From Escherichia coli (GTDB lineage Bacteria; Pseudomonadota; Gammaproteobacteria; Enterobacterales; Enterobacteriaceae): DNA of 64,000 nucleotides. The stretch lies in NCBI RefSeq assembly GCF_011045215.1, contig NZ_CP049201.1. One strand, written 5' to 3'. This document shows positions 14,842-47,271 of this stretch, piece by piece. How positions within the stretch are numbered: position 1 is the stretch's first letter; every line of letters begins with the position of its first letter. A program made the position numbers and the translations under genes. The notes beneath the pieces were generated by a model that saw only the letters and a program-made list of their open reading frames with translations, did no database searches and was not told where the DNA came from.

Positions 14842-15231
14842 ATGGACATGAGAAAAAAGCAATACGACACCCCGCTAGCAGAAAGGTTAGATGCGATCTC
14901 TCAACAGCATCATTTAAGTGGTTCAGATTTAGCGCGTATCGCTGGTGTAGGTCGTTCATCAGTCAACGCATGGAAAAAAAGAGGAACAATCAGTAAAGAT
15001 TCCGCAGCCAAAATTGCAGAAGCCACAAACGTTTCCCTTTCTTGGCTACTGACAGGGAAAGAAGAGACAAATAGAGAAGCGCTTGATGATGACGAGAAGG
15101 CCCTGCTTGATGTTTACAGAAACCTGCCACCTGTAGAACGTAGAAATATGCTGGCAGCTTTTCAAATGCGACTTCAAAAACTGACCGAATTTTACTCAGA
15201 ATACGTCGACCCAATAACACGACAAAAATAA
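14842..15231 (+). CDS. Prophage repressor, DicA-like (XRE HTH, no S24 peptidase domain)
   Basis: HTH LSGSDLARIAGVGRSSVNAWKKRG plus a C-terminal ALLDVYRNLPPVERRN segment like that of DicA. The ATG lies 7 nt after the TATAAT, suggesting a leaderless mRNA. Confidence 0.85.
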   Translation: MDMRKKQYDTPLAERLDAISQQHHLSGSDLARIAGVGRSSVNAWKKRGTISKDSAAKIAEATNVSLSWLLTGKEETNREALDDDEKALLDVYRNLPPVERRNMLAAFQMRLQKLTEFYSEYVDPITRQK

Positions 15232-15296: not shown

Positions 15297-15325
15297 TTGA
15301 CTTTTGTTCACCCAAAGAGAACAAT
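15297..15325 (+). promoter_or_regulatory. PdicB-like early-left promoter with overlapping operator
   Basis: TTGACT (15297-15302) -17- AACAAT (15320-15325), the same hexamers as the Cro-side promoter. Operator TGTTC-N9-GAACA at 15305-15323. Confidence 0.6.
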
Positions 15326-15399
15326 GTATTCCATCAAAGCACAACGGTGCGACAGGTCTTAGTTCCGCTACCCCGGCGTTAAGGGGAAATGAGGTCAAC

Positions 15400-15555
15400 A
15401 TGGATACTATCGATCTTGGCAACAACGAATCTCTGGTATACGGCGTGTTCCCCAACCAGGACGGCACGTTCACCGCCATGACGTATACCAAAAGCAAAAC
15501 GTTTAAAACCGAATCTGGCGCGCGTCGCTGGCTGGAAAGAAACTCAGGTGAGTGA
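15400..15555 (+). CDS. ydfA: YdfA/YdaF homologue (51 aa)
   Basis: MDTIDLGNNESLVYGVFPNQDGTFTAMTYTKSKTFKTESGARRWLERNSGE is near-identical to K-12 YdfA as recalled. Confidence 0.85.
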   Translation: MDTIDLGNNESLVYGVFPNQDGTFTAMTYTKSKTFKTESGARRWLERNSGE

Positions 15556-15944: not shown

Positions 15945-16103
15945 ATGAATGAGGCAGAACTGAGACACGTTATAGCATTGCTTCTGGAAGATGCAAAACG
16001 TCTACATGAACTGGAACCAAATGCAGGCACAGGGGCCCGTATTTTGTTAGCAAAAAAATGTCTTGCTTCACAAGTGGTAAAAGCAACTGAACAGCGAGGT
16101 TAA
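15945..16103 (+). CDS. Hypothetical small protein (52 aa)
   Basis: MNEAELRHVIALLLEDAKRLHELEPNAGTGARILLAKKCLASQVVKATEQRG. GAGG SD. Its stop overlaps the next start (TAATG). Confidence 0.5.
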   Translation: MNEAELRHVIALLLEDAKRLHELEPNAGTGARILLAKKCLASQVVKATEQRG

Positions 16104-16741
16104 TGATGGAATTTAAAGATTTACCGCTATCAATCCAGGGGATTGCAGCACACACACTACGTCAACGTCTGAACGAAGCTATGGCTGAATCTGCAACGAA
16201 AGAAACCATTGATAACATGGCTCGTAATGTGCACGATGCGTTTACCGGATTGTATTTCTGTGCGTCTGTAAATAAACACGACCCAGAGAGTGTGGCAAAG
16301 AAAATTGCAGAAACGACAGTGCAAAACATCAATACGAAACCAACCGAAGACGAAATTGACCAGCCTGCCAGTGAACAAAAGAAAGAAAAATCGCCATATG
16401 CGGGGAACATGTTTGTTTATGACAAACTTATCCGAATTCGTGGCGAAATTCCGACTGAATACCTGGCAAAAATTCACCAGGCATTACTTAAAAATCTGGA
16501 AACGGAAGTATTTGATGGCAACACCAACGGCTCCTTCGTGGTGTCAGCCCTCACAAAAGAATGGGATACAGATAATCGCCGGAATGTTGCTACATGGTTA
16601 TTCAGCAACAAAGCTGCTGCCCTGGAAGCTGCGGCCTGTATTTGCGACCTGCTAAGGACAGACCGCAAATACAACCTGGATGTGTATAGCTATATTTATG
16701 CTGAACACTATCCACTCTGGATTGACTGGTTTAAAGGGTAA
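16103..16741 (+). CDS. Hypothetical early protein (212 aa)
   Basis: ORF coupled to the upstream small ORF. No family recognised. Confidence 0.7.
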   Translation: MMEFKDLPLSIQGIAAHTLRQRLNEAMAESATKETIDNMARNVHDAFTGLYFCASVNKHDPESVAKKIAETTVQNINTKPTEDEIDQPASEQKKEKSPYAGNMFVYDKLIRIRGEIPTEYLAKIHQALLKNLETEVFDGNTNGSFVVSALTKEWDTDNRRNVATWLFSNKAAALEAAACICDLLRTDRKYNLDVYSYIYAEHYPLWIDWFKG

Positions 16742-16903
16742 CACCTGCGGGACCGAGCCGACCAGCACCACGATTATTTTATCCTCCATTAAGGGGTGAA
16801 TTAAAAATGGAGACCAACACGCTGCTACGTGTGGTCGTGCGCCGGACACGGATAACCTTCCGGCATGCTCTTTAACAATCTGGATATCCACAACAGCAAT
16901 AAC

Positions 16904-17422
16904 CTACGGATTGCTGCTCAATGCTCTACCTATCTCTTCTTCAGATGGGGGCGGTATATAGTCATCATTGCGTTCAAATTTAAAGCGCGAATCACATTTC
17001 AGGCATTTAGAAATATGGAACTTATCATGCTCACCAATTTCAACAGGTTGAAGTATTGCTATTACACCATGCTGATAGCAATTGGGACAGGCATAGTGAA
17101 AACATGTGTCTTCTTCGTCGAGGCTGTTCCTGAAAGCATAGACAAAATGCCCAAAACCAGTTTTGTGTATCGTATAGCATTCAAGTTTTCGATTACGCTC
17201 GTCAATTTCATGACATTTTTACTTAAGCAAGAGTATTTCCTCGTACTGAAGCGCGAGCGTTTTCGCTAGCTCTGCGTTCTGTATTTGTAAGTCTGCCAGT
17301 TGGCGACGCATTTCGTAGACAGCCTTTTCACGTTCAGATTGGCTTTTTGCATCAAGTATTACCTGTAATAAATCAATCGAGACTTTAATTGCCGTTATTG
17401 ATGAAGTTATTCCAGATAGCAT
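16904..17422 (-). pseudogene. Counter-oriented coiled-coil + zinc-ribbon gene interrupted by one in-frame TAA (17219-17221)
   Basis: A 67-aa ORF (17222-17422, MLSGITSS...EEILLLK) is followed in the same frame by 104 stop-free codons lacking any ATG/GTG/TTG (KCHEIDE...CFHYACPNC...KCLKCDS...SSNP). TATAAT (complement of 17454-17459) lies upstream. Confidence 0.55.
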
Positions 17423-17731
17423 TCTTAACTCTCTTTGTTGTTGGGGTATCCGGATTATACAAAATTCTTGTTGTTGGGGAACAACAGGAACCACCTCGCC
17501 TGATGTGGTTAAAAGCAGGCACACAACACGAAAGCGCACGGCGAAGGTTTCTTTTCCTTAGAAGGCTTGTCGTTAGATTTCTTCGGCCGTGCGCTTCCGG
17601 TTGTGGCAATCCGCGAAATGGCGCGGCGGTAAGTATGGCGGGGTTATCCTTACCCCCACTGGTAGCACCGGGTTGTCAGGTTGACCATACGCTTAAGTGA
17701 CAACCCCGCTACAACATCTCCATGTTGAGGC

Positions 17732-17787
17732 TTGTGTGAGACCTTTGGCGGCATCAGTTTAATTGCTGGCTGATGTCCGCCCTTTTT
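17732..17787 (+). ncRNA. dicF: DicF sRNA homologue (ftsZ-targeting)
   Basis: ...TTTGGCGGcATCAGTTT...CTGATgtCCGCCCTTTTT matches the core and terminator of K-12 DicF as recalled. Sits upstream of the dicB homologue. The 5' end is approximate. Confidence 0.8.
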
Positions 17788-17983
17788 AAAGTGAATTTTG
17801 TGATGTGGTGAATGCGGCTAAGCGCACGCGGAACAGTTAAAAGACCATTTGTTCTCCGTATCAATACTTATGGGTAGGTACTTGCAGGCGGGTCCCTGTA
17901 TTCCGGCGTTAATTGTTAACTGGTTAACGTCACCTGGAGGCACCAGGCACCGCATCACAAAATTCATTGTTGAGGACGCGATA

Positions 17984-18172
17984 ATGGAAACGTTATTACT
18001 CAATTCCACTACGCCTGAGACTCGTTTTGAAATTGGCGTTATCACTGGCGATAAAAACTTTATTGAGGATGCCATTAATCAGATAAAGCATGAGCCAGAT
18101 TCATCAAATGAGATATGCATTGCTTCAATGCTGGCCCGTTTACGCCCGACGCAAAAAGGATGCTGGCAATGA
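17984..18172 (+). CDS. dicB: Cell-division inhibitor DicB homologue (62 aa)
   Basis: METLLLNSTTPETRFEIGVITGDKNFIEDAIN...ICIASMLARLRPTQKGCWQ aligns with K-12 DicB (FEIGV, EDAIN, SMLARLR, KGC.Q). Confidence 0.85.
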   Translation: METLLLNSTTPETRFEIGVITGDKNFIEDAINQIKHEPDSSNEICIASMLARLRPTQKGCWQ

Positions 18173-18372
18173 ATACCACATTTGCACTTGTTCTGACGGT
18201 TTTTCTTGTTTCCGGTGAACCAGTTGACATGGTTATTGGCGTATACAGCTCAATGAAAGAATGCATGGCTGCCGCAGATGAACAGAAAATTCCCGGTAAC
18301 TGTTATCCGGTCGATAAAGTTATTCACCAGGATAATAACGAAATCCCGGCAGGACTTAAAACAGCGCCGTAA
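18169..18372 (+). CDS. ydfD: YdfD homologue (DUF1482, lysis-associated small membrane protein)
   Basis: MNTTFALVLTVFLVSGEPVD...EQKIPGNCYPVDKVIHQDN.EIPAGL matches K-12 YdfD as recalled. ATGA overlap with dicB. Confidence 0.85.
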   Translation: MNTTFALVLTVFLVSGEPVDMVIGVYSSMKECMAAADEQKIPGNCYPVDKVIHQDNNEIPAGLKTAP

Positions 18373-18449: not shown

Positions 18450-20885
18450 ATGAGCACTGATAAAGAAGAATTTGCATTATATTGTGAAGCAAAAAATGAC
18501 AAAGTCAGAAAACGCCTTGGAATTAAAGGTGGTTTTTACTGGACTACAGCAAAAAAATTATCTGTTGCCATCTCCCGCTGCATTACCGCAATGGATGACA
18601 ACGATTATGATGAAGACGACTTTAAAAAACCCGTCCGCGTCCATTTACCCGTTGTGAATGACCTTCCACCTGAAGGCGTGTTTGATACTGAATTCTGTAA
18701 CCGTTACGAAAAAGGCGGGGAAGATGGCATCACAATGGTATTTATCGCGCCCTCACCCTCTGCGCAGGACAAACCAGCCAACATTGACAATACCAACGTC
18801 AACGGCGAAGACATGACTGAGATTGAGGAGAACATGCTCCTGCCGGTTTCAGGTCAGATTCTGCCTGTTCGATGGCTGGCACAGCACGGCAGCAAAAAAC
18901 CGATCACACACGTTTCGCGGGACGAACTGCGCGCATTACATAACGCACAGGATGAAAAACTTCCCGCCGTTACCGCGCTGGCTATCTCAAATAAAGCAGC
19001 GCAACTCGAACCGCTGGAGATTCGCGATCTCCACAAACTGGTGCGAGACACTGACAAAGTTTTCCCCGCCCCCGTAAATTCGGACCTGGGACTGATAACC
19101 TCTTTTATCGAAGCATACCTAGACGCCGACTACACCGATCGCGGTCTGCTGACAAAAGAGTGGATGAAAGGAAATCGTGTTTCGCGTATCACCCGTACGG
19201 CTTCCGGTGCAAATGCCGGTGGCGGGAACAAAACCGATCGCAATCCGAATTTAGTACACACCTTCGATACGCTGGATGTGGAGATTGCAACAGCCACACT
19301 TCCGATGGATTTTAATATTTATGAAATTCCGGGCAGCGTTTATCGTCGCGCAAAAGAAATCGTCCTGAAAAGAGAAAGTCCGTTCAAAGAATGGTCCGCA
19401 GCACTTCGCGCAACCCCGGGTATTCTGGATTATTCCCGCGCCGCTATTTTTGCACTTATCCGGAGCGCTCACCCTGAGTTTTATCACTACCCGGGACGCC
19501 TTCAGGGGTATATCAACGCCCACTTAACGGAGACTGATCACGAGAACCCCAGCAAGGAAACTCTCACTGCTGCACGACATACACCGGAAAAAGACATCCT
19601 GGAAGAAGTTAACCGCGAACTGGCTGCTGAACGCGAAACAGAAGAAGAAAAAAATAATGAGGAAAAATCACAACCGTCTGACGCAATGGCAGATGAACAG
19701 GCAACGACTGAAGCAATGGGACAGGATACAACTGAATATCGCCAGGACACACAATCGCTGGATACTCAGGCACAGATAAATCCGGTTAATCAGGTAAAAG
19801 TTACCGCTGACGAAGTAAACAAAATTATGCAGGCAGCCAATATCAACCAGCCTGATGCCGACAAAATACTGGCAGTCCATCGCGGTGAATTCGTTGACGG
19901 AATTAGCGACCCGAATGATCCGAAATGGGTTAAGGGGATTGAAACCCGCGATTCTGTGAACCAGAACCAGCCCGAATCGGAACAAAACAGCCAAAATGCG
20001 TTACAAAACGAGCCAGAAACGAAACAGCCTGAACCAGAAGAGCAACAAGAACCGGAAAAAGTCTGCACCGCCTGCGGTCAGACCGGCGGCGGCAACTGTC
20101 CTGACTGTGGCGCGGTGATGGGCGACGCAACATACCAGGAAACATTCGATGAAAAAAATCAGGCTGAAGTTCAGGAAGATGATCCGGAGGAAATGGAAGG
20201 CGCTGAACATCCGAACAATGAGAATGCTGGTAACGATCAGTATCACGCCAGCGATAGTGAAACTGGCGAGGCGACAGATCCCTTAATTAATGTGAACGGT
20301 CATCACGAAATCACATCCACCAGCAGTACGTGTGACCATCTAATGATCGACCTTGAAACCATGGGAAAAAATCCTGATGCCCCGATTATCTCAATAGGTG
20401 CAATATTTTTCGATCCGCAAACCGGAGATATGGGACCGGAATTTAGTAAGACTATAGATCTGGAAACAGCTGGCGGAGTCATTGATCGTGACACCATTAA
20501 ATGGTGGCTTAAGCAATCACGCGAGGCGCAATCTGCCATTCTGACCGATGAAATCCCGTTAGATGATGCACTGTTGCAATTGCGGGAATTTATCGACGAA
20601 AACTCCGGCGAATTTTTTGTTCGTGTCTGGGGAAATGGAGCCAGCTTCGACAACGTAATTTTACGCCGTTCATATGAACGGCAGGGGATCCCCTGCCCGT
20701 GGCGTTACTACAACGATCGCGATGTACGCACAATTCTTGAACTGGGAAAAGCCATAGACTTCGATGCCAGAACGGCTATTCCATTCGAAGGCGTACCCCA
20801 CAATGCGCTGGACGATGCCCGTCACCAGGCAAAACAAGTTTCAGCTATCTGGCAAAACCTGATCCCGAGTCAGGCTGATTTTTAA
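18450..20885 (+). CDS. RecE N-terminal-region homologue fused to a DEDDh 3'-5' exonuclease domain (YdfE-like; commonly annotated exodeoxyribonuclease VIII)
   Basis: Residues about 110-640 track K-12 RecE as recalled (NTNVNGEDMTEIEENMLLP, LTKEWMKGNRVS, CTACGQTGGGNCPDCGAVMGDATYQETFDE). The C-terminus has DLET...NGASFDN...HNALDDA exonuclease motifs. Confidence 0.8.
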   Translation: MSTDKEEFALYCEAKNDKVRKRLGIKGGFYWTTAKKLSVAISRCITAMDDNDYDEDDFKKPVRVHLPVVNDLPPEGVFDTEFCNRYEKGGEDGITMVFIAPSPSAQDKPANIDNTNVNGEDMTEIEENMLLPVSGQILPVRWLAQHGSKKPITHVSRDELRALHNAQDEKLPAVTALAISNKAAQLEPLEIRDLHKLVRDTDKVFPAPVNSDLGLITSFIEAYLDADYTDRGLLTKEWMKGNRVSRITRTASGANAGGGNKTDRNPNLVHTFDTLDVEIATATLPMDFNIYEIPGSVYRRAKEIVLKRESPFKEWSAALRATPGILDYSRAAIFALIRSAHPEFYHYPGRLQGYINAHLTETDHENPSKETLTAARHTPEKDILEEVNRELAAERETEEEKNNEEKSQPSDAMADEQATTEAMGQDTTEYRQDTQSLDTQAQINPVNQVKVTADEVNKIMQAANINQPDADKILAVHRGEFVDGISDPNDPKWVKGIETRDSVNQNQPESEQNSQNALQNEPETKQPEPEEQQEPEKVCTACGQTGGGNCPDCGAVMGDATYQETFDEKNQAEVQEDDPEEMEGAEHPNNENAGNDQYHASDSETGEATDPLINVNGHHEITSTSSTCDHLMIDLETMGKNPDAPIISIGAIFFDPQTGDMGPEFSKTIDLETAGGVIDRDTIKWWLKQSREAQSAILTDEIPLDDALLQLREFIDENSGEFFVRVWGNGASFDNVILRRSYERQGIPCPWRYYNDRDVRTILELGKAIDFDARTAIPFEGVPHNALDDARHQAKQVSAIWQNLIPSQADF

Positions 20886-28365: not shown

Positions 28366-30190
<1,825 letters not shown>

Positions 30191-47186: not shown

Positions 47187-47252
<66 letters not shown>

Positions 47253-47271
<19 letters not shown>

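Follow-up and report, generated by a model that had tools for sequence, protein, structure and literature searches.

Rip1 ("ring interacting pore 1") is described as a single-protein, prophage-encoded defence that is non-toxic on its own (PMC13434031, on Patel et al. 2026, Nature 651:1060). According to the same account, Pseudomonas phages escape through mutations in the portal, and coliphages through mutations in the small terminase (PMC13434031). Twelve Rip1 molecules are reported to surround an 11-mer small-terminase ring, which is contacted by the C-terminal half of the protein (PMC13434031). The N-terminal amphipathic helices give rise to a pore, with dye release from liposomes, perforation of cells and an early end to the infection (PMC13434031). 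Ring binding, membrane pores and phage protection are given as known for the Rip1 proteins of HK446 and P. aeruginosa (PMC13434031). Here we describe a relative of these genes in a 64-kb stretch of Escherichia coli contig NZ_CP049201.1 (hereafter the window, meaning the whole stretch analysed). The gene lies on the minus strand (16904..17422), comprises 172 sense codons in intact relatives, and is interrupted at codon 68 in the window. It is very probably a prophage anti-phage defence gene of the Rip1 family, a stand-alone moron that a single C-to-T nonsense change has inactivated, and thus most likely a young pseudogene.

The encoded protein is homologous to HK446 Rip1 (gp37, PDB 9oox) over nearly the full length, with the same helical N-terminal half and CxxC...CxxC C-terminal half. 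Both genes occupy the same stand-alone antisense position in the early-left region, behind the same P_sieB-type leader with paired repeats around the -10 hexamer. They differ in the host element, which is a Rac/Qin-like, dicB-type element in the window and a lambda/HK97-like phage in HK446, and in the repeat itself (CCCCAACAACAA in the window, ACCCCTACAG in HK446). In addition, a nonsense codon interrupts the window copy. The same PHROG 1244 also takes in JBD30 gp30 and its orthologues in Pseudomonas Casadabanvirus prophages, among them D3112 orf25 (P. aeruginosa Rip1). Like the window gene, JBD30 gp30 is a single gene opposite in strand to its neighbours, and it is listed as a moron (PMC11445458 Appendix Table S1); it is, however, about 28% identical and lacks a P_sieB-type leader. 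HkaP of HK620 and HK630 ("putative superinfection exclusion protein") has the family, slot and leader type of the window gene, but is intact and about 28% identical, and its exclusion annotation is positional only. The arrangement of a single gene against the flanking operon is found in the window, HK446, HK620, JBD30 and a Citrobacter prophage.

A further comparison is offered by the sieB-esc-sas module of P22 and lambda, which uses the same slot, orientation and promoter region (core, paired repeats, -10 position and RNA start). SieB and Rip1 are both lysogen-expressed defences of the abortive type, and P22 sas fits the antisense-strand hairpin found here. SieB and the window protein are nevertheless unrelated, and Esc arises from internal initiation rather than from a stop codon. 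A hydrophobic membrane-spanning stretch is reported for SieB; no such stretch occurs in the 37-sequence alignment of the window family. The Tab/anti-Tab pair of Pseudomonas phage JBD26 is likewise a minus-strand defence moron with its own promoter, in the inter-terminase slot that Rip1 uses in related phages. Tab, by contrast, is unrelated: it has 83 aa, acts by blocking tail assembly and is paired with a partner gene, anti-Tab, whereas no partner is evident for the window gene. The "overlapping exclusion genes" of phage Fc02 were considered and set aside, as they lie at a different locus, upstream of the repressor.

An interrupted member of the Rip1 family

On the minus strand, the reading frame opens with ATG at 17422 and runs through 67 sense codons to a TAA at 17221-17219, beyond which the same frame stays open for 104 further codons to a TAG at 16906-16904. 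The coordinates given for this open reading frame (ORF), its stop, the TATAAT and the repeats in an initial annotation, made from the sequence alone, all agree with our re-reading. That annotation also held that the downstream stretch contains no ATG, GTG or TTG, which is wrong: an in-frame TTG is present at codon 168 (16921-16919), five codons before the terminal stop and without consequence for the interpretation. The gene is AT-rich, as had been noted, with a GC content of 40.3% against 48.9% for the window and 45.6-47.3% for the flanks.

A three-way DNA alignment reveals that E. coli C5 and strain 41 carry CAA (Gln68) at the position of the premature TAA (17219..17221, minus strand) in surrounding DNA that is 98-99% identical, so that the alleles differ here by a single C-to-T change at 17221. 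In the RefSeq annotation of both strains the gene is one uninterrupted coding sequence for a 172-aa protein. These are the only two of 5,426 complete E. coli genomes with the full-length gene; in Salmonella, an orthologue with 89% identity is likewise intact at 172 aa. The uninterrupted version of about 172 aa that the initial annotation had proposed to look for in related prophages therefore exists, in C5 and strain 41. The CAA codon of these strains and the homologues, all of which are single polypeptides, support its suggestion that one nonsense mutation has freshly inactivated a moron.

Searches of general family collections were uninformative. Neither half of the protein nor their fusion had a significant match in Pfam at E values up to 1, SieB included, and the searches of Pfam, NCBIfam and PADLOC 2.0 returned only sub-threshold coiled-coil noise; this PADLOC release is older than the description of Rip1. 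The repaired protein matches PHROG 1244 (function unlisted) from end to end, with an E value of 7.5e-32 and residues 3-156 aligned to positions 3-152 of the 157 in the profile. A 34%-identical paralogue, which occupies the same slot in other E. coli strains, likewise matches PHROG 1244. The same group holds JBD30 gp30 (206 bits; hhalign 99.25%) and HK620 HkaP (172 bits). With the paralogue as the query, a database search retrieved 113 homologues from enterobacterial prophages; leaving aside those that are disrupted or run off a contig end, each is a single protein of about 155-175 aa. In a 37-sequence alignment the invariant positions are C112, C115, C140 and C143 (CxxC...CxxC), together with a few positions in the helices and beta-strands. 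The four cysteines align with the LCAQCY and RCHRCN motifs of Rip1, and all four codons are present in the window, 3' of the stop.

The fold leads to the same family. As the initial annotation had recommended, the structure of the fused sequence was predicted; the AlphaFold2 model of the repaired protein (pLDDT 80.4) contains two helices, residues 2-24 and 28-80, followed by six strands that make up a beta-rich domain. The description of the gene as coding for a coiled-coil and a zinc ribbon was correct. A Foldseek search of the PDB yielded 9oox_M and 9oox_L as the sole significant matches (E 8.8e-7 and 1.9e-6, probability 1.00), an entry entitled as HK446 Rip1 in complex with the T6 small terminase. 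The template modelling (TM) scores of 0.38-0.56 are modest, which is put down to the flexible arrangement of helices and domain. At the sequence level, the family profile aligns with 9oox_L with an E value of 2.9e-21 (profile 6-151 on chain 16-160 of 164), the single sequence matches Rip1 with an E value of 6.1e-9, and BLASTP gives 24% identity (E 6e-12).

The stop codon separates two parts that are likely to differ in function. The N-terminal 67 codons (17222..17422, minus strand) encode helix 2-24 and most of helix 28-80 according to the AlphaFold2 model and the family alignment; by homology, they would correspond to the amphipathic pore-forming part of Rip1 and be the sole part translated here. 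The C-terminal 104 codons (16907..17218, minus strand) encode the beta-rich zinc-ribbon domain, as judged from the alignment and secondary structure, which probably represents the ring-binding sensor half and would be left untranslated. Codon 68, the position of the stop, lies within the second helix; from there it is about 15 residues to the beta domain and 44 to the first invariant cysteine. A full-length uninterrupted frame is found in C5 and strain 41 and is absent from the window copy. Because the frame is interrupted at codon 68, we regard the window copy as a pseudogene of the Rip1 family and not as a functional member.

The intact 172-aa relatives combine a long amphipathic helical hairpin in the N-terminal half with a four-cysteine zinc-ribbon domain in the C-terminal half. 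By analogy with HK446 Rip1, the latter would dock onto a ring-shaped oligomer of the infecting phage, either the small terminase or the portal. About twelve copies would then gather around the ring and their N-terminal helices would make a membrane pore, killing the infected cell before progeny are complete. In the window, the change from CAA to TAA at codon 68 would end translation after the helical part, and the sensor half would not be made. The truncated product would keep the effector helices and lose the domain for sensing and assembly. Since the ring templates pore formation in Rip1, the defence function has probably been lost.

The TAA allele is not confined to the window. Its truncated product, called from an upstream GTG as a protein of 106 aa, has two entries in the protein database, P0005 and P0006, which represent slightly different haplotypes. 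Separate NCBI assemblies supply 23 contigs with P0005, and one more contig carries the truncated product. The immunity modules beside the allele (L006-L014) differ: one combines ParE/PaaA2 with a helix-turn-helix (HTH) gene, another a 162-aa HTH gene with YdaS/YdaT, and a third an S24 repressor with a P22-type Cro. The segment bearing the TAA allele is shuffled among prophage backbones. Its occurrence on at least 23 separate assemblies beside such differing modules identifies the TAA as a real circulating allele. Among ten aligned copies, the TAA alleles all belong to one haplotype and the copies are 99.6-99.9% identical. The only further coding changes among them are P126S and I164M, both non-synonymous and both 3' of the stop, a pattern that fits relaxed constraint, although the numbers are too small for proof.

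Lesions of other kinds occur elsewhere in the family. P0083, P0118, P0119 and P0120 are other truncated or frameshifted forms, and gene decay seems common in the Rip1 family. In Salmonella enterica, P0007 (119 aa) has a frameshift caused by the loss of one A in an A5 run (CAAAAATG) directly after the codon that corresponds to the window TAA. This lesion and the window TAA are two separate lesions at the junction of helix and sensor; chance or a homopolymer sequencing error may account for the coincidence.

Alternative explanations for the stop codon

The initial annotation allowed that the TAA might be a sequencing error, in which case the gene would be intact in the real genome. A difference of one base from the intact alleles is what such an error would produce, but the allele recurs in at least 23 independent assemblies, where the 106-aa product on the 23 contigs and the one further contig comes in the haplotypes P0005 and P0006. 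A C-to-T substitution outside a homopolymer is, moreover, not a typical systematic error, and we consider this explanation highly improbable. Only slightly more credible is that the TAA is read through or recoded, which would leave the gene active and still yielding a full-length or two-part protein, as the initial annotation had proposed as its second option. The 104 codons after the TAA are still open with the four cysteines intact, and the stop lies between the helical and sensor halves. The close relatives, however, have an ordinary CAA, and the stop is conserved in no homologue (0 of 37 aligned homologues at the column of the window TAA), with other lineages disrupted differently. The stop is also a TAA, which of the three stop codons is the one least readily read through in E. 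coli. No suppressor tRNA is encoded in the 64-kb window, where the only tRNA gene is a tRNA-Tyr with anticodon GTA (47187-47271, plus strand). The downstream stretch lacks a usable in-frame start except the TTG five codons from its end, and the new substitutions in the TAA alleles are only non-synonymous and 3' of the stop. Frameshifting at the stop was also considered and rejected, because the downstream ORF is in the same frame and only read-through would help. Read-through is accordingly a very unlikely account of the locus.

A different possibility is that the 67-aa N-terminal fragment is itself functional, either as a dominant-negative product that poisons the full-length Rip1 of other prophages, in the manner of Esc, or as a small membrane-active peptide. 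Retained with the fragment are the promoter, a Shine-Dalgarno-like stretch and both predicted helices of the Rip1 pore part. The allele, with its first 67 codons unchanged, is carried by at least 23 contigs across different immunity modules. There is also a precedent in the equivalent slot of P22, which encodes the truncated inhibitor Esc, a shortened SieB that inhibits SieB. The lack of changes, though, has no statistical weight, since the stretch is only 201 nt long and the copies compared are 99.6-99.9% identical. Nowhere in the family is 67 aa a natural length; the other short forms are different frameshifts, truncations or partial sequences at contig ends. Esc, for its part, is the C-terminal part of SieB produced by internal initiation, which is a different logic from that of an N-terminal fragment. 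A role for the fragment appears improbable, if less so than read-through.

Inactivation of a Rip1-family gene by one recent nonsense change is therefore the explanation that we favour, and three points weigh against it. The truncated allele, now spread among prophages whose immunity regions differ, has acquired no second lesion, which fits a recent neutral loss and yet may leave room for a retained role of the 67-aa product. The identity to the structurally characterised Rip1 is only 24%, so that the target specificity and even the pore mechanism are extrapolated to the window family. Finally, an older label for the JBD30 homologue, which cites Tsao et al. 2018, makes it a moron that acts by blocking the injection of the phage genome (PMC11445458 Appendix Table S1), and this differs from the pore model. 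The label appears to have been superseded by that of a late-acting pore triggered by portal or terminase rings.

Promoter region, paired repeats and antisense hairpin

The window gene is preceded by a promoter of its own, as the initial annotation had claimed. The -10 hexamer TATAAT (17454..17459, minus strand) corresponds in the alignment to the -10 end of the sieB promoter annotated in P22, and the predicted transcription start, an A at 17447 on the same strand, aligns with the "sieB RNA start site" of P22 at 29727. A blastn search of deposited phages with the leader matched 164 records, and the matching region of the P22 reference is annotated "sieB: promoter". The relevant P22 features are a promoter at 29690-29720 and the sieB RNA start at 29727. 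In a five-way alignment the P22 start corresponds to the A just before the second repeat copy, and the P22 -10 hexamer TAAACT stands opposite the window TATAAT. The homology of the window promoter thus extends over the sieB promoter annotated in P22 and the RNA start mapped there, with -10 and repeats in register. The promoter is of a known type, the P_sieB of P22 and lambda, and judged by this homology transcription would start at A17447. P22, lambda, HK620 and HK446 Rip1 all have the same leader design, with ACCCCTACAG as the repeat, and in HK446 the Rip1 gene (gp37) occupies the sieB slot, between ral and N, behind the same leader type. The predicted 5' untranslated region (17447-17423) is 25 nt long, C/A-rich and unstructured, with a fold of 0 kcal/mol. 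A simple promoter scan had missed the TATAAT, there being no -35 hexamer with at least 4 of 6 matches at a spacing of 16-18 bp. Searches against Rfam over the leader found no family, either in 7 kb at E values up to 1 or in 161 nt at E values up to 10.

Upstream of the repeats lies a near-invariant core of 30 nt (GCCTGCTTTTAACCACATCAGGCGAGGTGG; 17491..17520, minus strand), which also precedes sieB in P22 and lambda, Rip1 in HK446, and unrelated genes. In the form GCCTGCTTTTAACCAC(R)TCAGGCG(M)GGTGG, this core is found in at least 120 viral contigs (loci L098-L215). Rip1-like proteins account for 17 of the 88 ORFs that follow the core among the matches listed, and the remainder are unrelated small proteins. 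Examples include membrane proteins, one of 178 aa and one of 106 aa beginning with MSQPPINPLKNM, as well as small zinc-ribbon proteins, a lipoprotein-like protein, a CxxC protein of 68 aa, a protein of 144 aa beginning with MSGNIYTLYKSH and one of 66 aa beginning with MTKEEFVSY. The P_sieB region of about 100 nt is a portable cassette placed ahead of many unrelated small genes of lambdoid prophages.

A second class of leader was also observed ("type II"; L102, L108, L145, L170, L171, L176 and L196), in which the core runs into TGgTATCCT, resembling an extended -10. The core supplies this TGnTATCCT motif in the type II leaders, but not in leaders of the window's type. In type II, the motif is followed by an inverted repeat whose 3' arm holds the Shine-Dalgarno sequence, for example ATCCTTAAAA-N9-TTTTAAGGAT, CCTTCTT/AAGAAGG or CCTTTTA/TAAAAGG. 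The stems of these inverted repeats co-vary between cassettes, and the element could be a hairpin that sequesters the Shine-Dalgarno sequence or an operator.

The window's leader contains two copies of the repeat CCCCAACAACAA on the minus strand, which had been described as perfect and as bracketing the -10 hexamer, and this is confirmed. Copy 1 (17468..17479) spans about -33 to -22, overlaps the -35 region, and forms the loop and one arm of a hairpin. Copy 2 (17435..17446) occupies +2 to +13 in the predicted mRNA and is closely followed by an AGAGAG Shine-Dalgarno-like stretch. These are the only exact copies of CCCCAACAACAA in the 64-kb window, where 0.39 chance matches would be expected with one mismatch allowed. 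Among the matches listed, which comprise 85 distinct leaders, those of the window's type always have paired direct repeats of 9-14 nt at a distance of 33-34 nt, and the pairs bracket a TAnnnT hexamer that is kept in otherwise variable spacers.

The sequence of the repeat varies from cassette to cassette and the two copies match each other, with at least six variants (CCCCAACAACAA, TTCCACAGTCAA, ACCCCTACAG, CCCCAATGCAA, CCCCCACAA and CCCCAACGA; leaders L004, L098, L127, L128, L134, L184, L190, L218, L219 and L220). Because the two copies co-vary across cassettes, the repeats must have some function and are under selection for likeness to each other. One repeat type is found ahead of unrelated genes, so that the reader of the repeats is not the moron's own product.

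The hairpin that includes copy 1 (17465..17490) has an 11-bp stem and a GGGG loop at 17476-17479 and belongs to the plus strand, in the sense of the operon. In the window, the plus strand folds with -12.4 kcal/mol (z -3.6), compared with -8.6 kcal/mol (z -2.7) for the minus strand. The antisense hairpin is the more stable one in all 38 variants (means of -8.6 versus -3.8 kcal/mol), and with shuffled sequences as the reference, the opposite strand has a mean z of -3.9 and the gene strand one of -2.3. About 14% of the pairs (30 of 209) are G.U on the opposite strand, corresponding to A.C mismatches on the gene strand. The asymmetry was judged by folding each sequence separately together with its shuffles; RNAalifold on a MAFFT alignment of 27 antisense leaders was uninformative, as the variable stem was mis-registered. 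Such asymmetry between the strands marks the hairpin as an RNA element of the operon-sense transcript, lying antisense to the moron promoter. At least in part, this suggests a role as antisense RNA and not purely as a DNA operator, although the repeats may also be an operator pair on the DNA, as first annotated.

In P22, sieB is described as controlled by sas, a cis-antisense RNA of 105 nt, and the hairpin RNA of the window may be its counterpart, by analogy. A sas-like RNA would be made when the early-left operon is transcribed, and copy 1 would form the hairpin loop and arm of that transcript. We tentatively suggest that the repeats could be the specificity determinants of the portable head, which is made up of the P_sieB core, the hairpin and the repeats. 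Their copies would be kept identical so that the sas-like RNA recognises the moron mRNA through copy 2 and silences or re-programmes it, and the repeat alleles would constitute compatibility groups; we regard this as possible rather than likely. Two known RNA elements were considered and rejected. The CA-rich repeats do not represent an AgvB-like sponge against GcvB, as AgvB is a different RNA at the PR' moron site downstream of Q, and an immunity element of the P1 c4 or P4 CI type is not indicated, there being no match to the Rfam C4 family.

Prophage context and implications

About 70 nt 3' of the TAG, a terminator-like hairpin is followed by UCCAUUUUU (16803..16836, minus strand), with a fold of -13.9 kcal/mol (z -2.6). 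A simple terminator scan made no call at 16803-16836, owing to a bulge. About 55 nt of the 3' flank are conserved with the paralogous cassette in RM11911. Promoter, gene and terminator-like hairpin with its U-run form a complete moron unit of the classical kind.

The surrounding operon lies on the plus strand, and the Rip1-family gene is antisense to it, as first annotated. The operon includes a CI/RacR-like HTH gene (14842-15231), a DUF1391 gene (15304-15555) and a 212-aa ORF (16103-16741), and continues beyond the Rip1-family gene with the genes for DicB (17984-18172), a DUF1482 protein (18169-18372) and a RecE-like exonuclease (18450-20885). The 212-aa ORF, which lies just upstream of the Rip1 pseudogene in the sense of the operon, has no Pfam match and is kept as a 211-aa gene in all related loci. 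A match to the DicF RNA lies at 17733-17782 on the plus strand, with a score of 45.4 bits (E 1.1e-7) that is below the Rfam gathering score of 48; a terminator-like hairpin lies within it (17750-17777). Directly after DicF, a weak STnc100-like match (17784-18003, plus strand; 33.9 bits against a gathering score of 47) overlaps the start of dicB. The host element is a Rac/Qin-like prophage with a dicB-type early-left operon, in which the gene occupies the counterpart of the sieB slot in lambda, P22 and HK446. The window gene thus belongs to a known defence family, in a known type of slot and behind a known type of promoter.

These results clarify an annotation, in that a "hypothetical protein" split by a stop codon belongs, as a decayed copy, to Rip1, a defence family whose description dates from 2026. 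They extend the Rip1 family to the dicB-type (Rac/Qin-like) prophages of E. coli and Salmonella, and the frequent pseudogenisation in the family is as expected for costly abortive-infection genes. The portable P_sieB head provides a sequence handle for finding morons that are expressed in lysogens, and with them candidate defence genes. The co-varying repeats and the strand-asymmetric hairpin lead to a concrete, testable hypothesis of regulation and are the part most worth following up.

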